Notes: generated by a model not told the origin, from the sequence alone. Numbered from the stretch's first letter, positions 1,926 through 63,302 are shown. The stretch: DNA of 64,000 nt from Candidatus Marinacidobacterales bacterium (GCA_965219415.1 CBDCNP010000002.1:4544001-4608000), one strand, 5' to 3'. Program-made: numbers and translations.

Positions 1926-2040
1926 GGTGCTTCCGCCATTAAGTGTTGGTGAGATGACGCTAAGACTTTATAGTGCATTAAATTACAGCCAAAATAGCGT
2001 TCGTGACCTTCGCTGCGCGCTAAATGGAGCGTAAGCGCTT
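1926..2040 (+). mobile_element. Partial 166-bp IS1-like MITE
   Basis: Near-identical to the first ~115 bp of the full MITE at 19541-19706. Confidence 0.8.
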
Positions 2041-2076
2041 TCCTAAGAAACTCCGGTGTGCGGACTCGATGCAGCC

Positions 2077-3361
2077 TGTGCATCGTCAAAACTGCTCCGC
2101 CCACGAAATCAAGGACTTACGCTCCGCTTGAATTCTGGGCCGAAGACGGCGAAACTCCGCCGCTATGTTCAACGTTGTTGTCTTCCTCGTCTCACTTGGC
2201 GTCCGTGCCATTCGGGCGATGTGTCGGCGCCGCGCCGACCTGGTGTTGGAGAACGTCGCCTTGCGGCAGCAAGTGACGGCGCTGAAGAAAGAGCGCCCAC
2301 GCCCACCGCTCGACGACACGGAACGGGCTTTCTGGGTTGCCCTTCGAGGTTCGTGGCCCGTGTGGGCGAGCCGCCTGCTCATCGTCCACGCGGACACCGT
2401 AGCCCGTTGGCATCGCGACCGATTCCGACGGTACTGGGCAATGATCTCGCAGCGCCGCCATCCTGGTCGACCCCGGATTGATGCTGAGATTCGTTGCGTC
2501 GTCCGCACGATGGCGCAAGACGGCTGGGGGGCGCCACGCATCCATGCTGAGCTCACCAAGCTCGGTTTCATCATCTCCGAGATCACGGTGTCGCGATACC
2601 TGCCGCGGCATCCCGCGGAGCCCGACCAGCTGAAACGATGGATGGCTTTCTTGCGCAACCATAAAGACGATATCGCCGCCATGGATCTGTTCACCGTGCC
2701 CACCGCGTCGCTCCGGCTGCTGTACGGCTTCTTCGTCATCGAGCACGGCCGTCGGCACATCGTTCACTTCAACGCCACGTTCCACCCGACGTCTGCTTGG
2801 GTTATTCAGCAACTGCGTGAGGCGTTTCCCTACGACACCGCTCCGAAATATCTCATCTTCGATCGCGACTTCATCTTTAGCGCTGCGGTCATCGAGTTCA
2901 TCAAAGCAACGGGCACAAAACCCGTTCGCACTTCGTTTCGCAGCCCATGGCAAAACGGAACTGCGGAGCGGTGGGTCGGCAGCTGCCGTCGCGAGCTCCT
3001 TGAGCACGTCGTGGTTCTCGGCGCATGTCATCTCATCCGGCTCGTGCGGGTTTACATCAGCTACTATCACGAGGACCGTTGCCACTTGGGGCTGAACAAG
3101 GACACACCGAGCTTGAGAACGGTCACGCACCGACCGTCTCCTACGGCGAAAGTCGTCGCACTGCCGCGAGTCGGTGGATTGCACCATCGATACGAGTGGC
3201 GAGAGGCAGCCTGAGTCAGCTTGGTCGCTCGCGTTACTCGGTTGGTCGCCGAGAAGTTCGACCTCAGCACTTTCCCTCGCGCGCTGACCACGCTCTCCAG
3301 CATGTGCTCGAGGGCGGTCCGGGCCTAGAGTCCAGTCCCGGACAAATAATGATGATGGACA
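2077..3361 (+). mobile_element. 1285-bp rve-integrase IS (IS481-like), copy 1
   Basis: Termini TGTGCATCGTCAAAACT and ATAATGATGATGGACA; near-identical copies elsewhere in the window. Confidence 0.9.
2165..3214 (+). CDS. Integrase core (DDE) transposase, 349 aa
   Basis: AMDLFTV, IFDRD and SPWQNGTAER give the DDE triad; WGAPRIHAEL HTH. Confidence 0.9.
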   Translation: MFNVVVFLVSLGVRAIRAMCRRRADLVLENVALRQQVTALKKERPRPPLDDTERAFWVALRGSWPVWASRLLIVHADTVARWHRDRFRRYWAMISQRRHPGRPRIDAEIRCVVRTMAQDGWGAPRIHAELTKLGFIISEITVSRYLPRHPAEPDQLKRWMAFLRNHKDDIAAMDLFTVPTASLRLLYGFFVIEHGRRHIVHFNATFHPTSAWVIQQLREAFPYDTAPKYLIFDRDFIFSAAVIEFIKATGTKPVRTSFRSPWQNGTAERWVGSCRRELLEHVVVLGACHLIRLVRVYISYYHEDRCHLGLNKDTPSLRTVTHRPSPTAKVVALPRVGGLHHRYEWREAA

Positions 3362-3389
3362 GCCTCAGTGCTGTATGATTGCCTAGAAT

Positions 3390-4244
3390 ATGGAAGGGAA
3401 AACCGCGCAGTCGACGGTAGATAAGGCGGAGGACCGCGGCTCGGTCTTACAGTCGCGGGTCGAAGACAGTCTTTCACCTCCACTGAAATGGGCTGGCGGC
3501 AAGCGTTGGCAACTACCGCACCTTCTGCCTCTCTGGATGGGTCACGAAGGCCGCCGACTTGTAGAGCCGTTTTGTGGCGGCTTGGCAGTAACGCTCGGGC
3601 TAAGACCGGAACGCGCTCTACTGAATGATATTAATTCGCACCTCGTGAATTTCTATATCTGGCTTCAGCGCGGCCTTCGTCTAACACGAGTCTTCGAGAA
3701 CGATGAACGCTACTACTATGCTCAGCGTCGCAAATTCAACGCACTGTTAGAAGAAGGCAAGGGCAATTCGCGCGAAGCTGCTGCGCTCTTCTACTATTTG
3801 AACCGCACTGGGTACAACGGACTATGCCGCTTTAATCGAAGCGGGCAGTTCAACGTTCCCTTCGGTCGCTACAGCAAGATCAACTACCAGCAAGACTTCA
3901 TGAAACACGAGGCCCTATTCAAGAATTGGCAATTCACGTGTGTGGATTTCGAAGAGATCGACCTGAACGCCAGTGATTTCGTCTATGCAGACCCTCCATA
4001 CGATGTGCAGTTCACGCAATACTTCAAGGGAGGCTTCGACTGGGAGGATCAGGTCAGAACAGCTCAATGGGTGTCGCGGCATGAAGGTCCAACAGTCCTC
4101 GTCAATCAGGCAACTGAACGAATCGTTGAGCTCTACGGCCGCTTGGGCTTCAAACTGAAATTTCTATCTGCTCCCAGGCGCATAAGCTGCACGGGGGACC
4201 GGAGGCCAGCAAAAGAGGTACTTGCATTCCTAAATTTGGAATAG
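3390..4244 (+). CDS. Dam-family (D12 class) N6-adenine DNA methyltransferase
   Basis: PPLKWAGGK, EPFCGG, YLNRTGYNGL, FNVPFG and DPPY motifs. Confidence 0.92.
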   Translation: MEGKTAQSTVDKAEDRGSVLQSRVEDSLSPPLKWAGGKRWQLPHLLPLWMGHEGRRLVEPFCGGLAVTLGLRPERALLNDINSHLVNFYIWLQRGLRLTRVFENDERYYYAQRRKFNALLEEGKGNSREAAALFYYLNRTGYNGLCRFNRSGQFNVPFGRYSKINYQQDFMKHEALFKNWQFTCVDFEEIDLNASDFVYADPPYDVQFTQYFKGGFDWEDQVRTAQWVSRHEGPTVLVNQATERIVELYGRLGFKLKFLSAPRRISCTGDRRPAKEVLAFLNLE

Positions 4245-4247
4245 CAA

Positions 4248-4658
4248 ATGTCTCGGAAAGACACCGGCAGAGTGCTGGAGCAAATGATCCTGCCTACTCT
4301 AGAACGCGCAGGCTACGGCTGCGCTACCGGCGTTACGGTAGGTCTTCGGCTGGGCACTGGTCGCCATGTCGTTGATGTCGTCGCGGAACGAGACGGACTC
4401 CGTTACCTAATATCTTTGAAGTGGCAACAGGTTGCTGGAACCTCGGAACAGAAGGTTCCCTTTGAGATCATCTGTCTAAGTGAGGCTCTAGAGGGCGGCG
4501 ACTACGCGGGTGCCTATTTGATGCTCGACGGGGAACGCTGGCGCTTTCGAGATTTTTTCATTTCAGATCACATCAAAGCCTACATGCACGTATCCGACCT
4601 CATAGACATCATCACACTCGAAGCCTTGATTGCGGAAGTCAACAGTGAGGGGCTGTGA
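4248..4658 (+). CDS. PD-(D/E)XK nuclease superfamily protein (restriction endonuclease-like)
   Basis: HVVDVV...ISLKWQQVAGTSEQKVPFE; starts 3 bp after the methylase stop. Confidence 0.7.
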   Translation: MSRKDTGRVLEQMILPTLERAGYGCATGVTVGLRLGTGRHVVDVVAERDGLRYLISLKWQQVAGTSEQKVPFEIICLSEALEGGDYAGAYLMLDGERWRFRDFFISDHIKAYMHVSDLIDIITLEALIAEVNSEGL

Positions 4659-5449
4659 GAATGGCCGAGGGCCGAGGTACTGACAAACAGAGGAAAGCCC
4701 TTGAATTTTTCAGGAAACACCACCTGTCCCAACTACCGTTTTCCCTGGACGAATTCGCCAAGGCGACTGGCTGGACGGGAACGAGCGCCCCGACCTATTT
4801 ATCGAAGCAGTATGTTGTGTTCACGAGGAAGGTGGACGGTGGGCGCTACGTGGTTACCCAAGCGTTTCGCCGCTATAGAAGATGGAAGGCCTTTCGCGAA
4901 CTCGTAACGCAGGCTCGAAGAGCTCCCGAGTACTATTACAAGGCTTACGATCGTGTGCGCGTTTATGAGTTCTTATTACCATTGTCCAATGAAGAGCATC
5001 TCAAGGGCGTCCTCGATACGCTCTTTTACCAAGACACGATTAGAGCGCGACTCGGCGTTATCTCACGAACTGTGCTTGAACGCGAGTTCTCTCGTAAAGA
5101 GGGAGAAGACGACGACAAATATTTTAGCCGCTTGTTTCGTTGGCTCTCTGAGCGCTTCAGCGGCTATTCGGTTTATCACGTACAAGGTCGCTTCCGCGCA
5201 ACCGATTTGGCTTCCCGTGCAAGAGCGGCCGGAATGGAAGAGATGGGCGAACGGTACCTCATCGACGAGACTACGGCCATCGCCCGCTTTATTTTCCCGT
5301 GTTCTAGCCAGACCGAAGCGGACGCGATTCACTTTTTCTTCTGGGAATTGTTCGTCGAAAGCATCGTCGAGGTCGTCAGCGGCCAGGATCAAATCTGGAT
5401 GGTCGAAAGCGGCATGCAGGACCGGGTTCACATTTGGAAAACAAAGTAG
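4655..5449 (+). CDS. Hypothetical protein with N-terminal wHTH-like region
   Basis: Coupled (GTGA) to the upstream gene; FSLDEFAKATGW looks HTH-like. Confidence 0.65.
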   Translation: MRMAEGRGTDKQRKALEFFRKHHLSQLPFSLDEFAKATGWTGTSAPTYLSKQYVVFTRKVDGGRYVVTQAFRRYRRWKAFRELVTQARRAPEYYYKAYDRVRVYEFLLPLSNEEHLKGVLDTLFYQDTIRARLGVISRTVLEREFSRKEGEDDDKYFSRLFRWLSERFSGYSVYHVQGRFRATDLASRARAAGMEEMGERYLIDETTAIARFIFPCSSQTEADAIHFFFWELFVESIVEVVSGQDQIWMVESGMQDRVHIWKTK

Positions 5450-5458
5450 TCCCGTACG

Positions 5459-5800
5459 ATGGACAACACGCGCGAATGGCTCCGTGAGAACGGATACGAG
5501 GATGTTTTGACGCGCATCCAGGAGCTGGAAGCACGATGGAAGGCAGAAGGCAAGAAGACTCGTCGCAATTGGTGGGAAGTTCTTGCGGGGAGTAAGACCG
5601 GTCAGCCAAGAACCATCGGCGGCCATGAGTTCCCAGTCCTAAGATCGGCTCGGGTCCGGGAAGGGCTGCCTATCACACCGAACGCGATTCAGCGCGATCC
5701 GAACGAGAAAGCACCGCCGGTACGTACAACGGGTCGCTGGCCCTCAACGGCAAAGAAACTTACTCGGTCTGGACGCCGCCGACGAAGATCCAAGCAATAG
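5459..5800 (+). CDS. Hypothetical basic protein, last gene of the methylase operon
   Basis: ATG 9 bp after the previous stop, same strand. Confidence 0.6.
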   Translation: MDNTREWLRENGYEDVLTRIQELEARWKAEGKKTRRNWWEVLAGSKTGQPRTIGGHEFPVLRSARVREGLPITPNAIQRDPNEKAPPVRTTGRWPSTAKKLTRSGRRRRRSKQ

Positions 5801-5842
5801 ACGTGAAGCGTGCAAAAGCTGGGTTGAGATCCTAAGTAAAGC

Positions 5843-6195
5843 TGTGCCTTCTATTTATTCATCCGCGGGTGCTTGCGCTGTTTACTGTTGGTGATGTGTA
5901 CGCATCCCTTTGCAAAAGAGGCGCTTACGCTCCATTTAGCGCGCAGCGAAGGCGTCCTGTCCAAAAACACAAACGAACTCAAGACTGGCGCGCCGGGCCG
6001 TTTCGATCGCGTCGTATCCAAAAATACAAACGAACTCAAGATCGGCACGCCGTGACGTTTCGGAATAGACGTGTATACGCTGGGTTGGCCGATGGGAGCT
6101 GGAATCCCTCGGTCATGAGGACGCCGATCGCCGATCCAGCCTTTGACACTGTTGATGGTTGCCGTCGCTGGTTGGCTCCAGCGTGACCAACAGGC
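5843..6195 (+). mobile_element. Stack of IS-end stubs: TGTGCCTTCTATTT left end, MITE end, two tandem CGTCGTGTCCAAAA-type left ends
   Basis: Each piece recurs elsewhere (44826, 48968; 42081; 14875, 15060, 56729). Confidence 0.8.
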
Positions 6196-6229
6196 CGCTA
6201 CCGTCTACTTACTCGAGGAGAATGGAAGG

Positions 6230-6471
6230 AGCAGCTCCCCTTCTACGAATTCCCGCAGGCGATGTGGAAGTCGATCCGAATGACGAACGCCTTGGAGAAC
6301 CTGAATCGCGAGTTCCGACAACGCACGAAGACGCAGGCATCATTCACCACGGAGGCGTCAGAGGTCGGCTTGCTGTTCGGGCTTGTCGCTTCTGGCTAGA
6401 TCAGACTACGTCGCATTGATGGCTACCAACACCTCGCAGAAGTTCTTGCTCAAGGCGAGGTCACCGCGTGA
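6230..6471 (+). pseudogene. IS256-family transposase C-terminal fragment
   Basis: FYEFPQAMWKSIRMTNALENLNREFRQRTK; similar to 38772-39015. Confidence 0.8.
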
Positions 6472-6581
6472 TCTGATACCTTCACAAGGAACGGGAGGTG
6501 CGCCGTTCTTTTTCCACGGGAGTCGAGACGCGTCCGCTTCGACAGACCAATGCGAGTCTCTTGAATCTCGGAGGGTTCAAT

Positions 6582-6903: not shown

Positions 6904-7055
6904 GCCTCAGTGCTGTATGATTGCCTAGAATATGGAAGGGGAAACCGCGCAGTCGACGGTAGATAAGGCGAAGGACGGCGGCTCGGTCTTACAGTCGCGG
7001 GTCGAAGACAGTCTTTCACCTCCACTGAATGGGCTGGCGGCAAGCATTGGCAACT
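6904..7055 (+). pseudogene. Degenerate duplicate of the Dam methylase upstream region and 5' end
   Basis: Near-identical to 3362-3513 with indels; cut by IS copy 2. Confidence 0.85.
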
Positions 7056-8340
7056 TGTGCATCGTCAAAACTGCTCCGCCCACGAAATCAAGGACTTACG
7101 CTCCGCTTGAATTCCGGGCCGAAGACGGCGAAACTCCGCCGCTATGTTCAACGTTGTTGTCTTCCTCGTCTCACTTGGCGTCCGTGCCATTCGGGCGATG
7201 TGTCGGCGCCGCGCCGACCTGGTGTTGGAGAACGTCGCTTTGCGGCAGCAAGTGACGGCGCTGAAGAAAGAGCGCCCACGCCCACCGCTCGAAGACACGG
7301 AACGGGCTTTCTGGGTTGCCCTTCGAGGTTCGTGGCCCGTGTGGGCGAGCCGCCTTCTCATCGTCCACGCGGACACCGTGGCCCGTTGGCATTGCGACCG
7401 ATTCCGACGGTACTGGGCAAATATCTCGCAGCGCCGCCATCCCGGTCGGCCTCGGATTGATGCCGAGATTCGCCGCCTCGTCCGCACGATGGCGCAAGAC
7501 GGCTGGGGGGCGCCACGCATCCATGCTGAGCTCACCAAGCTCGGTTTCATCATCTCCGAGATTACGGTGTCGCGATACCTGCCGCGGCATCCCGCGGAGC
7601 CCGACCAGCTGAAGCGATGGATGGCTTTCTTGCGCAACCATAAAGACGATATCGCCGCCATGGATCTGTTCACCGTGCCCACCGCGTCGCTCCGGCTGCT
7701 GTACGGCTTCTTCGTCATCGCGCACGGTCGCCGGCACATCGTTCACTTCAACGCCACGTTCCACCCGACGTCTGCTTGGGTTATTCAGCAACTGCGTGAG
7801 GCGTTTCCCTACGACACCGCTCCGAAATATCTCATCTTCGATCGCGACTTCATCTTTAGCGCTGCGGTCATCGAGTTCATCAAAGCAACGGGCACAAAAC
7901 CCGTTCGCACTTCGTTTTGCAGCCCATGGCAAAACGGAACCGCGGAGCGGTGGGTCGGCAGCTGCCGTCGCGAGCTCCTTGAGCACGTCGTGGTTCTCGG
8001 CGCATGTCATCTCATCCGGCTCGTGCAAGCTTACATCAGCTACTATCATGAGGACCGTTGCCACTTGGGGCTGAACAAGGACACACCGAGCTTGAGAGCG
8101 GTCACGCACCGACCGTCTCCTACGGCGAAAGTCGTCGCACTGCCGCGAGTCGGTGGATTGCACCATCGATACGAGTGGCGAGAGGCAGCCTGAGTCAGCT
8201 TGGTCGCTCGCGTTACTCGGCTGGTCGCCGAGAAGTTCGTCCTCAGCACTTTCCCTCGCGCGCTGACCACGCTCTCCAGCATGTGCTCGAGGGCGGTCCG
8301 GGCCTAGAGTCCAGTCCCGGATTAATAATGATGATGGACA
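7056..8340 (+). mobile_element. 1285-bp rve IS, copy 2 (transposase 7144-8193)
   Basis: Same termini and 349-aa ORF as copy 1. Confidence 0.9.
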
Positions 8341-8709
8341 ATAATCGCCCTTTTTCTACCGGGAGACCGGTGCTTCCACCATGCACTGTGGGCAGCAGGC
8401 CCCAAGCCGTGTGTGTGGCTCGGTTCGATCAGGTCCACTCGCTGATGGGACAACTTCGAAGGAAATGACACCGGCGGCATGGGCTCCGCACAAACTTGAC
8501 CGGATTGAGGACCTGCAGTGGGATCCACCCGAGTTGTCCTTCATCACTGAACGTCACGGTGCAATGGTCGTAGGAGAGTCATCAAGAGAAGAAATACAGA
8601 GATGGACCGTCAACCTTGATACCCTCACCGCGATGGCCAGCATCTGTGGATTCCGTCAGAAGACGCCAGCACAGCCATGGCTGAACATTGCTCCCTCTTT
8701 CAGATCACG

Positions 8710-9978
8710 TCATTCAGTGCCATCGTCCCGATTCTCGAGAGCCTCGCGAATTTGCTGCACTGTTGCGTCGATAATCTCGAACCATTTCGGGCCGCGGGTG
8801 ACCAACGGGTCAAGCCGTTCGCCCTTCTTCATGCCCTTGCCGACCCCCTCATACTCCTTGCCGGACGGGGTACGGTGCTTGTAAACGGCAGCGCCCGGAA
8901 TCAGGGCCGCGACCTGGTCCAAGTAGCGCCGATAGATCGAGCTGTCGAGCCCGAGCTTGACACAGCGTCGAGACAGCCAGTGTGTGTTCTGGAGTGTCCC
9001 TCTCCGGTTGAGCTGCCCAAACGTGAAGGAATGGCCGGTCTCGGCGTCTTCGTATTTCAGCAGTGGTCCCGCATCTCCCCACGTGATCGTCAGGCCATGT
9101 GCCGGGGCGTGCTCAATCGCCCACTCTGCGAACCTGACGACCTCGGGCGAGCTTGAGCGTGACAGCTGCTCGAGGAAATCGCTCTCGGTGATCTTCGCTC
9201 GTCTGCTCTGCGCTTCGGCCGCCACGGAGGGGACCGAGACGCGGACCTCGTCCGGTGGCACCGTCGTTTTGATCTCGACCACCGCGCGCGTCACCTCGCG
9301 AGTCCGCGCAACGATCCGCGGCTGCACATAGAACTCTGGCGGCTCTGCCTTGGGATCGAGGGCATACAACCCCATCTCCACCAAGCCCAGGGTGAATTGC
9401 AGCCGGGGAGTCTGGTTGAGAAAGTCGGCCATCTGCTCGACGCCTTCGTGAATGCCGTCACCGACAATCAGCAACACAAAACGGCCGAGCCGCAAGTTTC
9501 GATTCACGCGATCGACAAACTCCCGTTCATTCACGCCCTCTTCGCCGTCGTCCACCAGCTCGACCAGCGGGTCGGCGGACGCCAAGGCACCGCCCTTGCG
9601 GCTGTCCAGTACCGCCTGTCGTAACTCGTTGTACGTCCAGGTTGAGACGTGCGAGGCGTAGTCAATGAGCTGCGCGACGACGGTTCGGCGCGCCTCGGGA
9701 TTCCGCCAGAGTTTCGTTTCGACGAGCGTCAAGTAGCCCTCGTCGTTCATGAAGACCAGATCGATGAACCCACTCCCGACCCGCAACTCACGCGCCAGCG
9801 GGTGCAGCCGATCAAAGATCGGCTCGATGTCTCCGACAGGGATCAGCGTCGGGTGTGCGAACAGCAAAGCTTGCAGGTCGGCCTCCTTAAACGTTCGCTC
9901 GTCGAGTGGAACGTGACGAAGCACCGTTGCCGTGCCGTTGCGGATGAGAACTGGTGTCACGAACTGTCTGGCTTTCAT
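8710..9978 (-). CDS. NucS/DUF91-like PD-(D/E)XK endonuclease domain protein
   Basis: EADLQALL...GFIDLVFM...LVETKLWRNPEARRTVVAQLIDYA. Confidence 0.75.
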   Translation of the reverse strand: MKARQFVTPVLIRNGTATVLRHVPLDERTFKEADLQALLFAHPTLIPVGDIEPIFDRLHPLARELRVGSGFIDLVFMNDEGYLTLVETKLWRNPEARRTVVAQLIDYASHVSTWTYNELRQAVLDSRKGGALASADPLVELVDDGEEGVNEREFVDRVNRNLRLGRFVLLIVGDGIHEGVEQMADFLNQTPRLQFTLGLVEMGLYALDPKAEPPEFYVQPRIVARTREVTRAVVEIKTTVPPDEVRVSVPSVAAEAQSRRAKITESDFLEQLSRSSSPEVVRFAEWAIEHAPAHGLTITWGDAGPLLKYEDAETGHSFTFGQLNRRGTLQNTHWLSRRCVKLGLDSSIYRRYLDQVAALIPGAAVYKHRTPSGKEYEGVGKGMKKGERLDPLVTRGPKWFEIIDATVQQIREALENRDDGTE

Positions 9979-10132
9979 CGGGGACCGCCCTTCTCATTGA
10001 AGCCAGCCAGCCAACGGGACTGCGATTGACCTTGTCCCCGCTCGGCGCAGAGTTGCTGCAAGGACACTTGCAACGTCTTGGACACGTCAACCATACAGAT
10101 TCTCCTCTCGGCTCGGTGAACACGCGGCACGT

Positions 10133-10245
10133 GGTGCTTGCGCTGTTTACTGTTGGTGATGTGCACGCATCCGCGGATTCCAAGGGCGTCTAAGCTGCTG
10201 ATTTGTGGTCTATTTCAAAAGGGCCGAGTTTTGGCACAGGACGGG
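10133..10245 (-). mobile_element. Chimeric linker: MITE end fused to a CCCGTCCTGTGCCAAAACTC-type IS end
   Basis: Same junction repeated at 55277-55368 plus 56627-56651. Confidence 0.8.
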
Positions 10246-10256
10246 AGCGAGGTCGC

Positions 10257-10829
10257 CTACCCCAAGTGACGATCGATGTCGTTGATCCACAGGCCGAGAA
10301 GCGTGCCGCGTTTGAATCCCTGATTCTTGTGCCCCAGGTCTTTGCGAATAGCGTTCAGAAGCTTCTCGTACTGAAACAACATTTTAATCGGATTTCCACC
10401 ATCAATGAACGCCATCCGCAATGCACGAAACTCTCGCACCACCTCATCAGAACCCCACACAACGAGTTGTTCTGTGACTGTGACAAAGAACCGCATCAAC
10501 TCTTGCTCCGTCGGTGGCTTTTCGCCGACCTTTTCGGCAAAATGAACCTTGAACAGCATGCCAATGATGGTCTCGTAGATCGGCTTCTTCTTTTCACGAA
10601 GCTCTTGACGAACGGCAACCATTGCCTCGATACGCTTAGACATTACAAGGGAGAATGTCGACACGGTGATCGTGCCTGCCGCCGCCACTACAGCAATAGC
10701 AACGTCCGATTGCATCGACGCAAGACTCGATATCAGCGCCGCGACAAATAGGTACGCTCCCCAGCCGATCAGGCCAAGCAAGAGGAAACCCAACACCGCC
10801 TGCGCCGCGGACTTTACGCGCGTATTCAT
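10257..10829 (-). CDS. Hypothetical protein with two N-terminal transmembrane helices
   Basis: Two hydrophobic segments followed by a helical soluble domain. Confidence 0.65.
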   Translation of the reverse strand: MNTRVKSAAQAVLGFLLLGLIGWGAYLFVAALISSLASMQSDVAIAVVAAAGTITVSTFSLVMSKRIEAMVAVRQELREKKKPIYETIIGMLFKVHFAEKVGEKPPTEQELMRFFVTVTEQLVVWGSDEVVREFRALRMAFIDGGNPIKMLFQYEKLLNAIRKDLGHKNQGFKRGTLLGLWINDIDRHLG

Positions 10830-11154
10830 CGCGTCACGGATCCGTTCCGGTTCTCGTGGAAATAAGAATGGCGTAACCTCCTGGTTGCCTAAAACCAAAC
10901 CTGCCTAGAAAGGCGAGGAGGAGGATTATGTCATGAAAGAAGGCTTGTGATCCGCAAAAAAGAAGATCGCGTATCGACGGGCAGACAGCCAAGAGAGGGA
11001 GGTTCTGCGAACTCGTCTTCGCCTCTGTAGAAATTCTGCGCGCTGTCGACGCCGGACCACCGACGCAATAACGTGCTCAAGAAAGAACGCGTTGTTCGCC
11101 GCGAGAAGCTAGGTCAGTCAGGCGACGCGCGACAACCGGTAATCGTGATGGAAC

Positions 11155-11334
11155 CCCGTCCTGTGCCAAAACTCGGCCCTTTTGAAATAGCCCATAAATC
11201 AGCAACTTAGAGTCTGTGTTTGTGGCCGTGCCCAGGGCCGGGCACGAACGAACGACGAAATCATGCAGGCATGGTGCCGGCAGACCGGGGATCAATCAAG
11301 TTCGGTGCGCGCGGATGAATAAATAGAAGGCACA
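11155..11334. mobile_element. Hybrid mini-element: CCCGTCCTGTGCC end fused to an inverted TGTGCCTTCTATTT end
   Basis: Both halves recur in the window. Confidence 0.75.
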
Positions 11335-11372
11335 GGTGTGTGAGATAGCTCAAACCGTAAAAAGTTGATCGC

Positions 11373-54319: not shown

Positions 54320-54326
54320 GGAAATC

Positions 54327-54355
54327 GTTTCCCGCGCACGCGCGGGGATGGACCC
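54327..54355 (+). CRISPR. Single orphan type I-E-like CRISPR repeat (29 bp)
   Basis: GTTTCCCGCGCACGCGCGGGGATGGACCC with hairpin CCCGCGC/GCGCGGG; no second repeat seen. Confidence 0.6.
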
Positions 54356-54376
54356 TCGGTAGTCGGCATTGCTCGT

Positions 54377-54712
54377 ATGGTGCAAAAACTCAGCCGGTCA
54401 TCTTCCGCAGCGGTAAGTGATTTCGGCTAAGATGCTTGCGATGAGCACATTTGTCTCGCCACAAATCTTCCTGGTCTCGCTCCTGGCCGGTTGGCTGAAC
54501 CAGGAGCAGCAGAAGCTCCTCGAGTATCTTGCAGGAGGAGAACCGTCACCGTTTCGTCGGCGGAAGGACGACGTGGGGGCAGTTTCTTCGGAGTCACTGG
54601 GACACCCTTGCCGCTGCCGATTTCTTCACCACCGAAATCTGGACTCCCGCAGGTCTGGTTACGTTCTACGTCTTGTTCGCGATTCAGCTGAAGACCCGCC
54701 GGGTCCATATCT
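54377..54712 (+). mobile_element. Remnant of another CGT-end rve IS
   Basis: TCGTATGGTGCAAAAACTC end; [33 protein letters not shown]. Confidence 0.75.
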
Positions 54713-54719
54713 CGATACC

Positions 54720-55122
54720 CGGACGCCAAGGCATCGCCCTTGCGGCTGTCCAGTACCGCCTGTCGTAACTCGTTGTACGTCCAGGTTGAGACGTGCGAGG
54801 CGTAGTCAATGAGCTGCGCGACGACGGTTCGGCGCGCCTCGGGATTCCGCCAGAGTTTCGTTTCGACGAGCGTCAAGTAGCCCTCGTCGTTCATGAAGAC
54901 CAGATCGATGAACCCACTCCCGACCCGCAACTCACGCGCCAGCGGGTGCAGCCGATCAAAGATCGGCTCGATGTCTCCGACAGGGATCAGCGTCGGGTGT
55001 GCGAACAGCAAAGCTTGCAGGTCGGCCTCCTTAAACGTTCGCTCGTCGAGTGGAACGTGACGAAGCACCGTTGCCGTGCCGTTGCGGATGAGAACTGGTG
55101 TCACGAACTGTCTGGCTTTCAT
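54720..55122 (-). pseudogene. Truncated duplicate of the 8710-9978 nuclease gene
   Basis: Near-identical to 9576-9978. Confidence 0.9.
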
Positions 55123-55368
55123 CGGGGACCGCCCTTCTCATTGAAGCCAGCCAGCCAACGGGACTGCGATTGACCTTGTCCCCGCTCGGCGCAGAGTTGC
55201 TGCAAGGACACTTGCAACGTCTTGGACACGTCAACCATACAGATTCTCCTCTCGGCTCGGTGAACACGCGGCACGTGGTGCTTGCGCTGTTTACTGTTGG
55301 TGATGTGCACGCATCCGCGGATTCCAAGGGCGTCTAAGCTGCTGATTTGTGGTCTATTTCAAAAGGGC

Positions 55369-56626
55369 TGAAGTGACCCCGCTTTCGTGGACAGGTTAAG
55401 AGTTAGGGATCAAGCGTCGCGATAGTACCTCCTTTCGAATTGGATAGGCGAGCAATAGTCGATGGCGGAGTGTCGTCGTCGCGGGTTGTACCAGCCTTCG
55501 ATGAAATCGAAGGTCGCCATGCGCGCCTCAGCGTGGTAGCGAAACGACCGGCGCTCGATCAGCTCGCACTCGAGCGTCGCGAAGAAGCTCTCGCACATCG
55601 CATTGTCGTAACAGTCCCCGACCGAACCCATCGACGGTCGCACCCCGGCCTCCCGGCATCGCTGGCCGAACGCTAGTGACGTGTACTGCGTGCCCTGGTC
55701 CGAGTGATGGATGACGTCGCCGGGCTTGCGTTGGAACAGCGCCATGTCGAGGGCGCTCAAGACGAGCGACGTCCGCAGGTGGGTAGCCATTGCCCATCCG
55801 ACGATGCGTCGGCTGAAGGCGTCCAGCACGACGGCGAGGAACAAGAAGCCCGACCACGTGGGCACGTAGGTGATATCGGCGACCCACAGGCGGTCGGGCC
55901 GGTCCACCTCGAAATTCCTGTCGACGAGGTCGGGGGCGGGACGGGCGTCGTCACAGCGAATCGTAGTGTGCGCCCTCTTGCGCCGGTGAACACCTTGAAT
56001 GCCAGCCTCGCGCATCAGCCGCGCTACACGCTTGCGTGAGACGTGGAGCTCGTGTGTCTCTCGTAGCTCGTGGAGAATCCTCGGCGCGCCGTACGTGCTC
56101 CGCGACGCGGTGTGAATCGCCCGGATCTTCTCAAGCAACTCCGCATCCGACACCGCGCGGGCCGACGGGGCACGCTCAAGCCACGCATAGTAGCCGCTGG
56201 CGGAGACGTCCAGCAGTCGGCACATCGTGGCAACCGGTAGTGAATCCTGGTTCGCCCTCACGAATCGGAAGGCTTCGGTGGTACCGACTCGGTCTCCCGA
56301 GCGAACCAGGCCGCGGCTTTTGAGAGGATCTCCCGCTCCAACCGTAGTTGACGGTTCTCCCGTCGCAGGCGGCGGAGCTCCGCACGCTCCTCACTCGTCA
56401 GACCGTCCTGCCTGCGACCCTCGTCGAGATCCGCCTGGTTCACCCAGTTCCGGATCGTCTGGCCCGAGGGCTCAAACTCTCGCGCCAGCTCTTCGGAGCC
56501 GCGGCCAGCTCGCACCAGCTCTACCATTTGGCGCCGGAATTCGGCCGCGTATCTGTTTCCCTGCTTTGACATCGTGGACTCCTGTCTCCCAAAGGATTAG
56601 GTGTCCACGAAAGCGGGTCAAGTCCA
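55369..56626 (-). mobile_element. IS3-family element, copy 2 (orfA 56258-56572, orfB 55410-56261)
   Basis: Near-identical to 17499-18756; 4-bp target duplication GGGC. Confidence 0.93.
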
Positions 56627-57066
56627 GGGCCGAGTTTTGGCACAGGACGGGAGCGCACCTTGCGCTCGGACTTGAGGTAACTATTCGCTGGCTGGGAACG
56701 GCAGTAGATTCTCCTTGCCTTGATGATTCCCGTCGTGTCCAAAAACACAAACGAACTCAAGACTCACGCGCCGGGCCGTTTCGTATTAGACGTGTCTACG
56801 CTTGGTTCGCCAATGGAAGCTAGAATCCTCAGTGATGAGCACGCCGAGCCAGCCCTTGACATTGTTGGTCCTCGCCATGGCTACATCCGTAGGAATCTGG
56901 ACCGTGTTTCAGTTCCAGTGTGGCCGTCTGCTCTTTTAGGGCAGCGATACCGTTCTGGTTTGTCAACTTCGTGTAAGGCCATTAGAATAGCGCCGTTTGA
57001 GTATCGCTCGAAGCTCAACCACCTAATACGTCGAGTTAGCTGCAAACGAAAAAGGAGACTTGAGGA

Positions 57067-57384
57067 ATGGCGAAAAAACCCATGACCCAAACCCAAATCG
57101 TGGCTCAGATGTCGGAAACAATGCAGGTTCCGAAGAAGCAGGCCGCTGCATGGTTCAAGTCGATTGCCGATCTCGCGGTAAAGGAAACGAAGCGAACGGG
57201 CCAGTTCGTCATTCCCGGAATCGGAAAACTCGTGAAGTCGAAACGAAAGGCTCGCAAGGGACGCAATCCCCGGACCGGCGAACAGATTCGAATCCCTAAA
57301 AAGACGGTGGTCAAGTTTCGAGTAGCGAAAGCTTACCAAGACGCCGTCGTCCCACCGAAGAAGAAGCTCACAAGCGACGCCTGA
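57067..57384 (+). CDS. hup: HU-family DNA-binding protein
   Basis: IPGIGKL..RKARKGRNPRTGEQIRIP..VKFR; AGGAG RBS. Confidence 0.9.
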   Translation: MAKKPMTQTQIVAQMSETMQVPKKQAAAWFKSIADLAVKETKRTGQFVIPGIGKLVKSKRKARKGRNPRTGEQIRIPKKTVVKFRVAKAYQDAVVPPKKKLTSDA

Positions 57385-57607
57385 GAATGTTCTACTGATC
57401 CTGGCGGTCGTTTCCTGCACGAGTGTTGGGTTGTCGTGGCACTATAGTGCATCTCCTTGGAGGTAGAGCTGTTCAGACATTGCGCCACAGGTGCTTCCGC
57501 CATCAAGTGTTGGTAGCTGCCACGTAACCCGTTCGTGTGCTAGAGGTTGAGCCTGATTTCGAGAGAAGCAGTTCTTTCGGCGATGCGGGCTGGGCTGACC
57601 ACACGGT

Positions 57608-58101: not shown

Positions 58102-58923
58102 ATGAGGAAGAGCGACGAGGAAAAGTACCTGAAGTTCTGGAGCCAGTTCGGCAAGGCCTTGAAAGAAGGGGTTACGGAGGATCTCGAGAATAAAGACAAG
58201 CTCGTCGAACTCCTGCTCTTTGCTTCTTCCAATGACGCCGAGAAGCTGGTGTCCCTGGCAGATTACGTGTCGCGAATGAAGGAGGGGCAGGAGGCAATTT
58301 ACTATCTGAGCGGTGAGTCCCGCGCTGCTATCGACAGTTCGCCTCACCTCGAGGCATTCCGGGCCCGAGACATCGAGGTCCTGTACCTCACCGATCCTGT
58401 CGACGAGTTCCTCGTCCAAGTCCTTGCCGACTACAAGGAGAAGAAGCTCCGGTCGGCGGCGAAGGGCGAAGTGGACCTCGGTTCAGAGGAAGAGCGTCAA
58501 GAGAAGAAGAGGGAGCTAGACTCTAAAGCGAAGAATTTTGCGGCTATGATGGAGAGAATTCAAAAGGTGCTCGACGACCGAGTCAAGGAAGTGCGCCTCT
58601 CGACCCGTCTCACGGATTCGCCGGCCTGCCTCGTGGGCGGCGAGGAGGATGTGAGCCCTCGTCTCGAGAAACTCCTGCGCCAGCAGGGCGACGTGCCTCC
58701 CCAGCGACGTATCCTCGAGCTGAATCCGTCGCACGACGTCGTGATCGCGCTCAAGGCGCGGTCCGACGTCAACGAGGACAGTGAAAGCGTTCCCGAATAC
58801 GCCGAGCTACTTTACGGCTACGCCCTACTGGCGGAGGGCGCCGATATTTCGGACCCGGCGAAGCTCGCCGCCCGCTTTGCGGAGCTGATGCGTCGCGGCC
58901 TTGGAATTGGCGGGGGCGGTTGA
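58102..58923 (+). pseudogene. htpG: HtpG (Hsp90) C-terminal third, 5' truncated
   Basis: FGKALKEGV, YVSRMKEGQEAIYY, SPHLE, RLTDSPACLV, ILELNPSH. Confidence 0.88.
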
Positions 58924-59321
58924 GCTCGTGAAGGCATTGTCAAGTTTTCCACGGCCTGACGGCCACCCCGAATGCATGAAACGCGGTTAGTCGCTGGAGG
59001 TGGCACCGGCTCAACACGACGCCTGAGGGAGCTCGGTTTTGACGTCACTCTCACACCTCTTGACAACGTTACACCCTGAGTTTCTTATTAGTTAAGCAGA
59101 ATCGGGCTGTCATCGTACGGAAGCCTCGGGGCCGCCGTGTTCGGAGGACTGCCCGGACAGATAGGTCGCGCAATCATCGGCGGCATTGGTCCCGTCTGGT
59201 CAAAATACTCAAACGCCCAGTGGGTCAGCAGTTTGCACCTCACGGCTTGGCGGGTTGCTAAGTTTCTATCATCGGGAAGCCGCATGAGGGTGGGCTTGAT
59301 CCGGTTTCGTAGACGGTTTAG

Positions 59322-59961: not shown

Positions 59962-60062
59962 GGTGCTTCCGCCATCAAGTGATGGAATGGACTCCTCCAC
60001 TGACATAGACGGCATCGATGTGCCAAAGTCAGTCGAATACGCATCGAAAAGGAGGAGTCCGA

Positions 60063-61094
60063 ATGAAAGATACAACGATCGCTGTGGATCTTGCAAAGAA
60101 CGTCTTCGAGATTGCCATCTCGGGAGAAGCGGGGAAGGTGTCCAAGCGACTCCGTGTGAGTCGACCCAAATTGGTGTCGTTCTTTGCCAAACAGAGCGCT
60201 GCCACCGTGCTTCTCGAAGCCTGCGGCTCGGCTCACTTCTGGGCAAGGACGTTCCGAAGGTTGGGACACGACGTCGTCCTGCTCCCACCTCACCTCGTGA
60301 GGCCGTATCGACGCGGGAGCAAGAACGACCGCGCCGACACGAAGGCGTTGCTCGAGGCCTACAGGAACGAGGAGCTTCTTCCCGTACCCATCAAGTCCGT
60401 GCACCAGCACACCCTCGCCGCGCTCCATCGCCTGCGCTCAGGATGGCTCTCCACACGGACCGCACGCATCAATGCCGTACGCGGGCTCCTGCGCGAACTC
60501 GGATTCATCATCCCAAAGGGCGCTCACTTCGTCGTGCCCGCCCTCTTCGAACTCGTCGAAGACGCTGATTCTGATTTGCCCGACGTGCTCCGTTCGCATC
60601 TCCGTGATGCCTGCTCCGAGATTCGAGAACTCAAGGACAAGTGCGCTAGCATCGAGCACGAGCTCAAGGCGCTCACCAAGCAGCTTCCTGAAGTCCAACG
60701 ACTTCTCGCCATTCCCGGCATCGGACTTCTGACCGCGACCGCCATCGTGGGCTTCGTCGGCGATCTTCGCCGCTTCCCATCGGGGCGCCGCTTCTCGAGC
60801 TACCTCGGCCTAGTTCCCAAGGAAAACTCCAGTGGCGACATTCGCCGCCTCGGACGCATCACCAAGCGTGGCGACTCCTACCTCCGTATGCTCCTCACCC
60901 AGGGCGGGCGCGCCGTGCTCCGCGCGGCGAACGTCAGCAAGAGCCCGCCCGACAAGCTCCGCGCCTGGGCTCGGAAGGTCCACCGCTCGCGGGGACACAA
61001 CAAGGCCGTGATTGCTGTCGCCAACAAACTCGCCCGGATCGTCTGGGCCGTCTCCACCCGCGAGAGTGAATTCCAGTCGCCGGTGGCCGCTTAG
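60063..61094 (+). CDS. IS110 DEDD recombinase/transposase
   Basis: AVDLAKNVF, LEAC, KNDRAD, IPGIG, YLGLVPKENSSG, ANKLARIVW. Confidence 0.93.
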   Translation: MKDTTIAVDLAKNVFEIAISGEAGKVSKRLRVSRPKLVSFFAKQSAATVLLEACGSAHFWARTFRRLGHDVVLLPPHLVRPYRRGSKNDRADTKALLEAYRNEELLPVPIKSVHQHTLAALHRLRSGWLSTRTARINAVRGLLRELGFIIPKGAHFVVPALFELVEDADSDLPDVLRSHLRDACSEIRELKDKCASIEHELKALTKQLPEVQRLLAIPGIGLLTATAIVGFVGDLRRFPSGRRFSSYLGLVPKENSSGDIRRLGRITKRGDSYLRMLLTQGGRAVLRAANVSKSPPDKLRAWARKVHRSRGHNKAVIAVANKLARIVWAVSTRESEFQSPVAA

Positions 61095-61159
61095 ACTTAG
61101 AGGCTCCACTTTCGTGTTTTCCTTTTTCCCTTCCAAAAGAGGCTGCGACGATACCCATC

Positions 61160-61325
61160 CAACTGATGGCGTACCGGTCGGACCGGCGCGGGGTCAAGCC
61201 AATAGCAACACTGGCCCTAAGAGGCCGTTCAAAGTGATTGGCTCCTCGCGCGCGGATTTTCCATCATGGCCCGGAGCACCCAAGACGCTCCTCACTGAGG
61301 CCGAAGATACGTTTGCAGTCTGACC
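61160..61325 (+). ncRNA. Predicted bridge/seek RNA of the IS110 element (boundaries approximate)
   Basis: Loop 1: GCCAAT..ATTGGC stem enclosing TAGCAACACT and AAGTG (target match). Loop 2: TTCCATCAT and AGATA (donor-junction match). Confidence 0.75.
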
Positions 61326-61409
61326 CACCCGTCACGACGCGATGGATGCGCAGCTTCGATGGAAGATTTATTAAGAAAGGGGCTTGACTAGAGGAGTCCA
61401 GATATGTTG

Positions 61410-62477
61410 CTACGCGGCTGCGGGCAGTGGTACAGGTGCGGAAGAGACCGGGTTGCGCGCCCTACTGAGCACGAAAACCTCGATCCGCGACCACAAAGGA
61501 ATCGTCGTCGCCAAGAAGATGTCTCGAAAGGTGAGCCGTCGCGTGGTCAGACCAGCCTGCATAGCCGGAGTTCGGATCTCACGTCCGAACTTCAGAGTTC
61601 CGTGCGGTCGGACGAAGTTGTAATAGCAACGGAGCAACTCCAGGTGCTCATCGAGCCTCTCCGTCGAGCGAGCGTGGGAAAGCGTTCGTCTCGAAAGGTA
61701 TGCCGAGCTTTGCCGGATGGTCAGATTCAACCGCTCGATGAACGACGTGTTCAATGTCGAAGAGTCCTCGGAGTTATTCAGCGCGTCTTCGAATCGCCAC
61801 GCGGCTCCGTGCAGCGCTCTGCGTTCGACCTTGATGATGCGATCGTTCCTGCGCGTTTTTAGGACCTGGCCGTAGAGACACGCTGGACCGAAGAAGCGAC
61901 GGATGACCTTCTGGTAGAATTCGAATCCATCCGTGACGATCAAGGGAAGACGCTCGAAATTCATCCGCTTCGAAAGGTCGCGAAACAGAGCGTGAGTGTT
62001 CCGGTAGCTTCGCCTTCCCGTCACCGTCGATGGCCAGAGCCGAGACCAGACTTCGATTGTAACGAAGACCCAACTCGGTGTCTTCTTGTTGCCCGCGAAC
62101 GTGCGAATCTCGTCGGCTTGAAGCTCTTCGGCAGCGAAGCCAGCGATCCTCCTGTGATTGAATCGACGACACATTTGGGCTGCCTTCTCGAGCCAGCGGG
62201 CGACGGTGTTCCGGGCAATCCCTTTGATCCGGGAAATCGAGGAAATGCTGACACCCTCGACTCTGAGAGCGATGACCCCATCGAAAGTAGCTCTTCGATG
62301 TTGGAGACGGTAGTAGGGCGTGCCTTTCGTCGAGGAGAACGTCTTTCCGCACTCGCCGCACCGGTATCGACGGCGTTTCCCGGACCTGGTTCGGTAGAAT
62401 CCGTGGCGAACGATGTTTCCGGAACTGACTTTGCCCTGCAACGGACATGCGAGATTGAGACATCTGCGATTCTTCAC
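61410..62477 (-). CDS. IS1-family transposase (zinc ribbon + HTH + DDE)
   Basis: CLNLAC..RYRCGECGKTF, QADEI, IVTDG, NTSFIERLNLTIR. Confidence 0.82.
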   Translation of the reverse strand: MKNRRCLNLACPLQGKVSSGNIVRHGFYRTRSGKRRRYRCGECGKTFSSTKGTPYYRLQHRRATFDGVIALRVEGVSISSISRIKGIARNTVARWLEKAAQMCRRFNHRRIAGFAAEELQADEIRTFAGNKKTPSWVFVTIEVWSRLWPSTVTGRRSYRNTHALFRDLSKRMNFERLPLIVTDGFEFYQKVIRRFFGPACLYGQVLKTRRNDRIIKVERRALHGAAWRFEDALNNSEDSSTLNTSFIERLNLTIRQSSAYLSRRTLSHARSTERLDEHLELLRCYYNFVRPHGTLKFGREIRTPAMQAGLTTRRLTFRDIFLATTIPLWSRIEVFVLSRARNPVSSAPVPLPAAA

Positions 62478-62586
62478 TTTGGCTCGGCCCTGACGATGAG
62501 AGAACTGTGTCTTCGGAATTCTGGTCCAAACTCTAGCACGCAGACCGGTTAGGGGCTGGCCGCCAACACTTAATTGCGGAAGCACC

Positions 62587-63302
62587 CTTTCTTGCGCAAC
62601 CATAAAGACGATATCGCCGCCATGGATCTGTTCACCGTGCCCACCGCGTCGCTCCGGCTGCTGTACGGCTTCTTCGTCATCGAGCACGGCCGTCGGCACA
62701 TCGTTCACTTCAACGCCACGTTCCACCCGACGTCTGCTTGGGTTATTCAGCAACTGCGTGAGGCGTTTCCCTACGACACCGCTCCGAAATATCTCATCTT
62801 CGATCGCGACTTCATCTTTAGCGCTGCGGTCATCGAGTTCATCAAAGCAACGGGCACAAAACCCGTTCGCACTTCGTTTCGCAGCCCATGGCAAAACGGA
62901 ACCGCGGAGCGGTGGGTCGGCAGCTGCCGTCGCGAGCTCCTTGAGCACGTCGTGGTTCTCGGCGCATGTCATCTCATCCGGCTCGTGCGAGCTTACATCA
63001 GCTACTATCACGAGGACCGTTGCCACTTGGGGCTGAACAAGGACACACCGAGCTTGAGAGCGGTCACGCACCGACCGTCTCCTACGGCGAAAGTCGTCGC
63101 ACTGCCGCGAGTCGGTGGATTGCACCATCGATACGAGTGGCGAGAGGCAGCCTGAGTCAGCTTGGTCGCTCGCGTTACTCGGCTGGTCGCCGAGAAGTTC
63201 GTCCTCAACACTTTCCCTCGCGCGCTGACCACGCTCTCCAGCATGTGCTCAAGGGCGGTCCGGGCCTAGAGTCCAGTCCCGGACAAATAATGATGATGGA
63301 CA
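62587..63302 (+). mobile_element. rve IS copy 9, 3' half
   Basis: Matches 2646-3361; 5' half replaced by the IS1 element. Confidence 0.87.

Follow-up and report, generated by a model that had tools for sequence, protein, structure and literature searches.

The window analysed here is a 64-kb stretch of DNA (G000:C3:4544001-4608000) from the genome of a Candidatus Marinacidobacterales bacterium (GCA_965219415.1), in which an array of unrelated genes, several of them of defence type, alternates between positions 1925 and 63302 with linkers made of the ends of insertion sequences (IS) and MITEs (miniature inverted-repeat transposable elements). It was found that the region is probably a graveyard of such elements, set in a megabase-scale accessory and defence compartment and made by insertion, nested insertion and deletion. 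The genome (G000) comprises 8.05 Mb in three contigs (C1, 2.07 Mb; C2, 0.28 Mb; C3, 5.69 Mb), with 59.2% GC and no N.

An IS and MITE library was built de novo from the genome itself and tiled on the window and on the whole genome, while element ends were located by searching with the 70 terminal nucleotides of each family. Transposase classes were taken from Pfam and cargo genes from Pfam and PADLOC, and repeat finding together with self-comparison was used to separate repeated from unique stretches of the window. The repeated stretches often had tens to hundreds of genome copies, with a maximum of about 430 for one 56-nt unit. The left boundary of family F06 in the library is a few bases off, one flank being common to 53 of 57, which makes the left flanks of F06 uninformative.

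Gene segments and linkers of the array

The tiling placed 76 IS and MITE pieces in the window, 11 of them full-length (five F01, two F08, one IS256-type F15, one F06 and two of the 168-bp MITE M168), and left 31 unannotated gaps within the array, of which 27 are at least 200 bp long. IS- and MITE-derived bases account for 23,507 of the 61,378 bases of the region (38%). The alternation of unrelated cargo with linkers of IS termini, which had been described in a first-pass annotation of this DNA, was therefore seen again as 27 segments set against 76 pieces. The features are as follows, with strand and source in brackets (aa, amino acids; ORF, open reading frame).

155-1897 (plus): left flank, outside the array; Schlafen AlbA_2 and HATPase_c_4 protein, 580 aa, defence-associated (PF04326, 4.4e-20; PF13749, 1.2e-18; PADLOC pAgo-associated models)
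1925-2041 (minus): M168 fragment, 51-167 of 168 (library tiling)
2074-3363 (minus): full-length IS F01, 1.29 kb, rve_3 DDE transposase (tiling, Pfam); further full F01 at 7056-8340 (minus), 15443-16728 (minus), 29069-30357 (plus) and 46316-47602 (minus) (tiling)
3364-5841 (plus): cargo, 53.6% GC; Dam-type N6-adenine methyltransferase 3390-4244, PD-(D/E)XK nuclease 4248-4658, familyless ORFs 4655-5449 and 5459-5800 (Pfam, PADLOC)
5842-6536 (plus): linker; U4 end of 26 nt, M168 of 85 nt, two D20 ends of 53 and 213 nt, F07 3' part of 307 nt (tiling)
8341-10132 (minus): cargo; NucS-like/PDC-S11-like protein 8710-9978, 422 aa (Pfam, PADLOC)
10133-10247 (no strand): linker; M168 end (1-40) joined on its inner side to a T12B end (77-1), element ends outward (tiling)
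10248-10837 (minus): cargo; familyless 213-aa ORF 10257-10898 (Pfam, PADLOC)
11155-11336 (no strand): chimeric 186-bp unit; IS12 end (4-92) and U4 end (95-1), a junction with 29 genome copies (tiling)
11337-13441 (minus): cargo; HEPN/Toprim protein 11692-12978, 428 aa, intact, with a roughly 10-nt F16 end left at 11681 (Pfam)
13442-13457 (minus): 16-nt remnant of a T12 (IS12-type) terminus, end toward the Nramp segment (end scan)
13458-14872 (minus): cargo; Nramp/MntH transporter 13617-14864, 415 aa (Pfam)
14873-15442 (no strand): linker; two D20 ends (188 and 127 nt), M168 fragment, F08 3' fragment (tiling)
16729-17457 (plus): cargo; MIP/aquaporin 16747-17430, 227 aa (Pfam)
17458-18827 (minus): F09 right-end remnant interrupted by full-length IS3-family F08 17499-18757, with a 3-bp duplication of F09 1652-1654 (Pfam, tiling)
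19539-19706 (minus): complete 168-bp M168, about 10 nt inside a T12 end (tiling)
19707-21766 (plus): cargo, 51.7% GC; familyless 657-aa ORF 19659-21632 (Pfam, PADLOC)
22535-23511 (minus): cargo; TerB_N/SngA-like gene fragment, ORF 22093-23466 (Pfam, PADLOC)
23548-24379 (minus): IS12 derivative that retains its two ends but lacks about 590 nt of interior (tiling)
24530-28924 (plus): cargo; metallophosphoesterase 24775-26559 (PDC-S60-like), HATPase_c_3 protein 26566-28833 (Pfam, PADLOC)
30358-36578 (minus): cargo; type IIG-like N6 methyltransferase 30300-32615, HKD(PLD)-Snf2 helicase 32620-35769, 142-aa ORF (Pfam, PADLOC)
37047-38735 (plus): cargo; AbiU2-type HEPN protein 37863-38660 (Pfam)
39429-40033 (minus): internal T12B fragment (tiling, Pfam)
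40034-42080 (minus): cargo; two DUF5677 proteins 40101-40970 and 41012-41959 (Pfam)
42081-42396 (no strand): linker; complete M168, T12B end of 40 nt, F16 end of 54 nt, U4 end of 46 nt (tiling)
42397-44825 (minus): cargo, 63.6% GC; penicillin amidase 42418-44703, 761 aa (Pfam)
48111-48965 (minus): cargo, 49.2% GC; ClpP-like protease 48286-48867 (Pfam)
51258-52657 (plus): full-length IS256-family F15, 8-bp target duplication GTTTGACC (Pfam, flank comparison)
52922-54376 (plus): cargo; Fic-domain protein 52985-54319 (PDC-S23-like), 50.3% GC over 52922-54557 (Pfam, PADLOC)
55277-56646 (no strand): second M168 and T12B linker copy, interrupted by full-length F08 55369-56626, target duplication GGG (tiling)
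58109-59189 (plus): cargo; HtpG/Hsp90 C-terminal fragment 58102-58923, profile 223-492 of 518 (Pfam)
59962-62586 (plus): IS110-family F09 (transposase 60018-61094) truncated at position 1476 by full-length F06, a junction with 17 genome copies (Pfam, tiling)
62587-63302 (minus): F01 fragment (3-719 of 1291), right limit of the region as first described (tiling)

The end scan detected 76 element ends in the window. In nine intervals cargo had been reported to lie between the outer edges of two termini, and for eight of them element ends facing the cargo were located on both sides: F01 (3363) and U4 (5841) at 3362-5842, T12B (10248) and IS12 (11152) at 10246-11154, IS12 (13463) and D20 (14871) at 13461-14874, F01 (16730) and F09 (17457) at 16729-17457, F16 (22537) and M168 (23512) at 22535-23511, F16 (42343) and U4 (44824) at 42343-44825, T12B (48112) and U4 (48966) at 48110-48967, and IS12 (49775) and F16 (50066) at 49773-50068. 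The ninth, 52922-54376, was confirmed on its left side only (IS12 end at 52926), the right flank being an unclassified repeat outside the library. The two ends flanking one cargo came from different families in all eight fully bounded intervals, and boundary ends over the array were drawn from about 12 families, among them F01, U4, T12B, IS12, D20, F09, F16 and M168.

When all cargo/IS junctions were considered, 37 were element ends and 19 internal breakpoints, with four of each beside low-copy repeats; about one third of the cargo edges are thus internal breakpoints rather than element ends. By chance, a random break would fall within 8 nt of the end of an element of about 1.3 kb in roughly 1% of cases. 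The share of element-end edges is far above random breakage, yet it is an expected product of insertion, since each insertion presents two ends to the recipient DNA. Junctions between one IS piece and another were of the internal-to-end type in 33 cases and of the internal-to-internal type in 11, with no end-to-end junction, which confirms the chimeric linkers noted earlier. The first description was sound overall, while it underplayed the 11 full-length elements, the whole MITEs among the "termini" and the one third of edges that are not ends. Most junction 50-mers, nearly every one, are single-copy in the genome, which indicates that the mosaics were made in place; the M168 and T12B junction of 10133-10247 has two genome copies, both inside the window.

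Defence-type genes were recognized by Pfam and PADLOC in about eight cargo segments and in the left flank, in line with the defence content first proposed. The other cargo encodes Nramp, aquaporin, penicillin amidase, a ClpP-like protease, the two DUF5677 proteins and several familyless ORFs. PADLOC gave no match for the HEPN/Toprim and AbiU2 proteins, the DUF5677 pair, the ClpP-like protease and four familyless ORFs, and neither Rfam families nor tRNAs were found in the window. According to the ORF and Pfam tables of the window, cargo genes lie on both strands without order, and cargo GC, as had been said of its mixed composition, varies between 49.2% and 63.6%, the genome standing at 59.2%.

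Several of the defence systems look incomplete, such as the lone SngA-like fragment and the orphan-type methyltransferase, and three cargo genes or more are damaged. The SngA-like ORF continues from unique DNA into F16 stubs and covers 28-210 of a 528-position profile, HtpG lacks anything before profile position 223 and begins at the edge of an F01 fragment, and part of the NucS-like segment (9576-10132) is duplicated at 54720-55276, where 54709-55137 is the duplicated 5' piece. Five small gaps are open across both edges in one frame, like internal gene pieces. When the longest frames of 10 small gaps were scanned with Pfam, nine gave no credible match (eight no match, one a sub-cut-off Sex_peptide) and the tenth was the duplicated NucS-like fragment. 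As for copies elsewhere in the genome, the MIP cargo occurs three times with the same F16 junction, its last 18 nt being the F16 end, Nramp has a second copy on C2 that is 99.4% identical, and the DUF5677 pair of the window are the only two in the genome.

Three further repeats lie in the array outside the library (36579-37046, 54376-54546 and 56882-57488), with 5-40 copies each; the 54376-54546 unit is also present in the related genomes G001, G003, G008, G014 and G018.

Element remnants across the genome

The elements involved are at most 1.7 kb long, except for one of 3 kb. By Pfam, F01, IS12, U4 and F16 encode rve_3/HTH_32 DDE transposases, F08 is IS3-like, F07 and F15 are of the IS256 (Mutator) type and F09 belongs to the IS110 family. 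The IS1 transposases invoked in the first-pass annotation were not recovered, as the only IS1-like signal was an F06 match below the Pfam cut-off. Intact transposase genes of IS12, U4, F16 and F01 occur in the genome, and F01 has 51 full-length copies, none of them on C1. IS12 is represented by 12 full and 334 partial copies. Of 511 T12 ends, 335 are solo, with the partner absent within 4 kb; about 13 pairs are spaced as in the full-length element (1.43 kb), and about 14 elements of 320 bp (MITEs) carry two T12 ends. Most linker stubs are, unlike MITEs, single ends and not whole elements. D20 is known from 141 fragments and no full-length copy, with a longest common extent of about 475-500 nt. 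M168 is itself a MITE, being short (168 bp), non-coding, bounded by terminal inverted repeats (GGTGCTT(G/C)CGC...) and of high copy number (149 full and 83 partial copies); its inverted repeats are related to the ends of F06 and F09. The 3-kb T12B element (L110, G000:C3:5100466-5103530) starts with a T12-type terminus and codes for a large serine recombinase of 553 aa with Resolvase and Recombinase domains; it is present in 6 full and 246 partial copies. Pieces of it lie in the window at 39429-40033 and 47617-48110.

Target duplications are still present at 37 of 41 copies of F00, 26 of 32 of F03, 21 of 24 of F04 and 6 of 6 of F15; F00, F03 and F04 are spread genome-wide and mostly intact. None was visible at the five F01 copies of the window, and duplications of at least 5 bp were found in 0 of 29 F01 copies genome-wide. 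Likewise, none surrounded 88 T12-bracketed units or the full-length IS12 copies. Site-specific insertion of F09, F06 and M168 into T12 ends, which would have accounted for the multi-copy chimeric junctions, was considered and rejected, as their outer flanks are mostly diverse and point to a mild preference only (the commonest outer-flank 10-mer accounts for 13 of 342 flanks for F09_R and 15 of 262 for M168_R). The orientation of T12 ends relative to replication is mixed in this genome, with local runs only. In the related genome G003, among the matches listed for a T12 33-mer, those at C2:8039-683000 were all on the plus strand, those at C3 2.02-2.72 Mb nearly all plus and those at C3 22-212 kb mostly minus; such single-strand runs are unlike the expectation for true inverted-repeat ends, which would appear in both orientations.

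Tiling of the whole genome yielded 605 full-length and 1,806 partial IS and MITE pieces (about 2,400). Partial pieces number 21 per Mb on C1, 376 on C2 and 291 on C3. With 61 partial and 11 full pieces in this tiling the window falls in the top 3.3% of 64-kb windows (the densest one having 69), and counts of 62-69 are reached by about 12 windows on C3 and C2. Between consecutive IS pieces there are 923 unique segments of 100-8000 bp genome-wide, 468 of which have element ends on both sides, as have 11 of 27 in the window; element ends form 1,299 of 1,846 edges (70%) genome-wide as compared with 35 of 54 (65%) in the window. These edge statistics show that, in this genome, DNA bracketed by IS pieces generally lies between outer edges.

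The density is confined to compartments. Repeated 24-mers make up 17.6% of the genome, 11% occurring at least five times, and 26.7% of the window (top 9% of 983 windows), and C3 carries 17-35% repeat at about 4.1-5.2 Mb and at 5.4-5.7 Mb. T12 ends are distributed in patches, with 1 on C1, 35 on C2 and 475 on C3, only 5 of the latter in the first 1.8 Mb of that contig, and the ends of D20, U4, M168 and F16 are similarly patchy. The first-pass annotation had proposed mapping the stubs for a concentration at this array; they are indeed strongly concentrated, in about 2.5 Mb of compartments and not at the array itself. The window is a typical piece of these stub-rich accessory compartments.

The suggested enrichment of defence genes was borne out as well. 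In a genome-wide mapping that covered one restriction-modification family and two small families, all 25 matches to N6_Mtase (PF02384) lay on C3 and 24 of the 25 fell in 100-kb bins with at least seven T12 ends, although such bins cover only about 31% of the genome (P about 1e-11, binomial). All three AlbA_2 matches were within C3 4.26-4.54 Mb.

Formation of the linkers

The following course of events probably accounts for the array. Accessory DNA, much of it horizontally acquired defence genes, would have been struck repeatedly by elements of a dozen families (IS and MITE), so that with each insertion an element end came to lie against non-IS DNA. Later elements would land inside earlier ones, as can be seen directly in the window, and element interiors together with the intervening DNA would then be lost by deletion, whether through transposase-mediated adjacent deletion or through recombination between hundreds of homologous copies. 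What is left would be genes or gene fragments between short mosaics of element ends. Selection may tolerate such debris in non-essential DNA only, so that it would pile up in the compartments holding defence genes. The "cassette" look would accordingly be a by-product of insertion and decay and not the output of a capture machine, and the decaying IS hotspot, which the first-pass annotation had named as an alternative, is in our opinion the best reading.

The region has the features of an IS graveyard, in that truncated copies are both more numerous and more diverged than intact ones, nested insertions carry duplications and one family (D20) consists of remnants only. Nested insertion is directly visible, with F08 at 55369-56626 placed in a T12B end with the duplication GGG, F08 at 17499-18757 placed in an F09 end with a 3-bp duplication and M168 at 19539-19706 placed about 10 nt inside a T12 end; the IS256-type F15 keeps its 8-bp duplication. 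Identity to the family representative is 93.5% for partial pieces and 97.1% for full-length ones, indicating that the fragments are older than the intact copies. Two D20 ends of the same direction stand in succession at 5953 and 6010, and again at 14873 and 15061, which fits repeated insertion followed by loss of the DNA between. The lack of visible target duplications at the five F01 copies of the window would fit recombination between copies. A 150-bp sequence occurs in the same direction at 3364-3514 and 6906-7055 (96.7% identical), adjoining two successive F01 copies, the first at its left end and the second at its right end; this layout around the methyltransferase cargo may be a duplication or a product of recombination between F01 copies.

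Shared cargo and competing explanations

Related genomes are numbered G001, G002, G003 and so on, and 21 genomes of the order, from 12 genera, were scanned for the T12 33-mer. It was present in 7 of the 21 (4 of the 12 genera) at 25-409 copies each, and the IS and MITE families were matched at 90-99% across G002, G003, G014, G016 and G018. The HEPN/Toprim segment is 99.6% identical in G003, one search giving 100%, and only there is the gene interrupted by an F02 IS. For Nramp the identity amounts to 99% in G002 and to 98% in both G014 and G018. The 2.6-kb methyltransferase piece, 96% identical in G003, there has as neighbours 224 bp corresponding to 36261-36484 and parts of the MIP cargo, arranged otherwise than in the window, and cargo pieces of 30358-36578 are 85-98% identical at three places in G003. 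Comparison with relatives, as proposed in the first pass, therefore returned some cargo at 96-100% identity with other order and neighbours, and the "same fixed order" that would have spoken against exchange was not found. Homology with the relatives usually stops at lineage-specific insertions.

Some cargo-stub junctions are common to different genera (T12 with Nramp in G002, F16 with HEPN in G003), implying that the DNA that moved included stubs. In G000 and G002 the Nramp start is preceded at 8 nt by a D20 end, which is missing there in G014 and G018; these two have D20 on the other side, at 13605, and keep about 125 nt more of the Nramp upstream sequence. The position of T12 around Nramp likewise differs between the two pairs of genomes. 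In the window the Nramp start codon is a GTG at 14864, 8 nt from the end of the D20 remnant, and the native upstream region is gone; judged from this arrangement, expression of Nramp would need a promoter from the D20 remnant.

Other cargo has a narrower distribution. The DUF5677 pair had a DNA match in none of 20 relatives, and 24530-28924 had no high-scoring match among the 150 matches listed for five related genomes. Penicillin amidase has only 62-69% DNA orthologues in relatives. The closest named records to an amidase query were metagenome-assembled and carry the label Candidatus Marinacidobacterales or Acidobacteriota; the best has 78% protein identity, and because the amidase neighbours in that record match C3:897-901 kb of G000, the gene has been either relocated or acquired. 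A 321-aa ORF in OZ250169.1 (L001 20379-21344), which is probably a transposase, is 97-98% identical to sequences at G000 C3:2487284, C3:3955433, C2:98596 and C2:85273; this near-identity, with the amidase at only 78%, is another sign of a mobile-element pool common across lineages.

Shared cargo of this kind raises an alternative, namely that the common IS and MITE ends serve as portable homology or as substrates for transposases in trans, and so shuffle cargo of 1-3 kb within and between genomes. The spread of the T12 33-mer and of the families through the relatives, the near-identical HEPN/Toprim, Nramp and methyltransferase cargo in different stub contexts, the two junctions common to different genera and the intact transposase genes of IS12, U4, F16 and F01 are all compatible with such a process, as is the finding that contigs of four public runs from three studies carry window sequences, with variants, at different depths. 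We nevertheless regard it as unlikely. No exchange event at a stub was observed, and the common junctions reflect common descent of cargo and stub, which transfer of large DNA followed by local decay explains equally well. The flanking ends are of different families in every one of the eight intervals, so that one transposase could not use both, and much cargo is unique to this genome. Target duplications are missing around the T12-bracketed units, which says nothing either way, as the full-length IS12 copies lack them too. A diffuse, compartment-wide exchange would be compatible with the graveyard reading and would add a function to it, an extension that we put forward as a doubtful one. Equally tentative is the idea that IS and MITE ends common to several genera may act as a community-wide counterpart of the integron without a dedicated integrase.

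The graveyard reading itself has to be weighed against several observations. The deletion step was deduced from missing halves and not observed. Genomes of other genera carry cargo of 0.2-2.6 kb at 96-100% identity, differently ordered and beside other neighbours, and the cargo edge at 13441 is the same nucleotide in G000 and G003 (L103, about 9640) while the abutting DNA differs, a 16-nt T12 remnant in G000 and unrelated sequence in G003. Within the genome, 49056-49300, 50359-51086 and the MIP segment recur with identical limits. A few chimeric junctions are multi-copy (IS12 with U4, 29 copies; F09 with IS12, 37; F09 with F06, 17) and resemble either small chimeric units or preferred sites of nested insertion. 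Ten families, F01 included, have no copy on C1, an absence that is not obviously explained by insertion tolerance alone. With contamination of the genome estimated at 8.45%, C1 might not come from the same cell as C3; this caveat is limited by the fact that the contrast between compartments is also present inside C3 alone. Finally, contiguity was judged from short Logan contigs of public runs, which are blind to long-range order.

The first-pass annotation had favoured a dedicated, integron-like platform that recruits defence cassettes one by one at IS-terminus linkers. Its cassette-like anatomy, with 27 segments, element ends on both sides in eight of nine intervals and defence genes among the cargo, does resemble such a device, but we consider it very improbable. 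The pattern is genome-wide and not specific to the locus, the boundaries belong to about 12 unrelated families, the genes lie on both strands, one third of the edges are internal, some cargo is truncated and the junctions are mostly unique. No tyrosine recombinase was found in or near the window: the genome has 13 matches to PF00589, none of them in the window, and on C3 they come no closer than 2.87 and 5.48 Mb. Of these 13 matches, 11 are on C1, the contig without the ten IS and MITE families.

An assembly artefact, by which repeats were collapsed or misjoined or several organisms merged, is just as implausible: the extreme repeat content, the contamination estimate and the occurrence of the same sequences in several co-occurring organisms could favour it, but the contigs of 0.28-5.7 Mb hold no N, the elements are short and nearly all junction 50-mers are unique, which fixes the path across the repeats. 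In run X3, one contig spans both the 13441 and the 13457 junction and differs at one position at most, while another covers 11310-13058 with no difference, and separately assembled relatives show the same kind of mosaic. The Nramp part was several-fold deeper in the public runs, with 18-19 differences, indicating that other organisms in the same runs carry the Nramp segment.

Integrons are built from IntI, attI, attC cassettes and a Pc promoter. Like them, the array has short units of one or a few genes in a row, short repeated linkers and diverse cargo of mixed GC, but there is no IntI-type gene in the window and no single recombination site, the linkers come from about 12 families, the genes lie on both strands, the units are often gene fragments, and the pattern extends over about 2.5 Mb. 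Defence islands, as reportedly described by Makarova et al. in 2011, are clusters of defence genes enriched in mobile-element genes. The window is similar in having methyltransferases of the restriction-modification type, an HKD-Snf2 helicase, HEPN/Toprim, AbiU2, Fic, a Schlafen-ATPase and a SngA-like fragment beside transposases, and this cluster of unrelated, putative defence genes associated with mobile elements qualifies as such an island; it departs from the islands described in extending in patches over about 2.5 Mb and in the extreme number of broken elements, with 1,806 partial against 605 full. Multiresistance mosaics of plasmids and resistance islands, which also come close, are built by IS26-type elements, truncated transposon ends and recombination. 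They share with the array the truncated ends of several elements between cargo, cargo reordered elsewhere and insertion into earlier insertions, whereas here the cargo is of defence and housekeeping-like kinds, no bracketing IS is dominant and the host is an uncultured acidobacterium. In contrast to IS26-like composite arrays, cargo was never found between two ends of one IS in the eight intervals. Nearest among the described cases are IS-laden genomes in transition such as that of Amoebophilus asiaticus, with 122 full-length and 143 truncated IS, 83% of the full-length ones without direct repeats (PMC3196728). The two genomes are alike in having many truncated copies with varied truncation sites, some families without duplications and fragments older than the intact copies; the present genome differs in having about 10 times more elements, being four times larger, confining them to compartments where those of A. 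asiaticus are evenly spread, and retaining several families with fresh duplications.

A literature search returned no paper on nested IS and MITE arrays in defence islands, judging by titles and abstract openings, and none on "Marinacidobacter". A capture platform would have represented a novel type of genetic device, but the evidence is against it. What the locus offers instead is a clear, fully assembled picture of defence islands after long bombardment by transposons, in which about 2,400 pieces are confined to about one third of the genome, where the restriction-modification genes lie as well. It also serves as a warning that "cassette-like" anatomy arises from insertion and decay. The catalogue of element ends should be useful for annotating relatives, in which the same ends number in the hundreds, and the near-identical cargo found across genera makes it a testable question whether IS remnants promote the exchange of genes among these bacteria.

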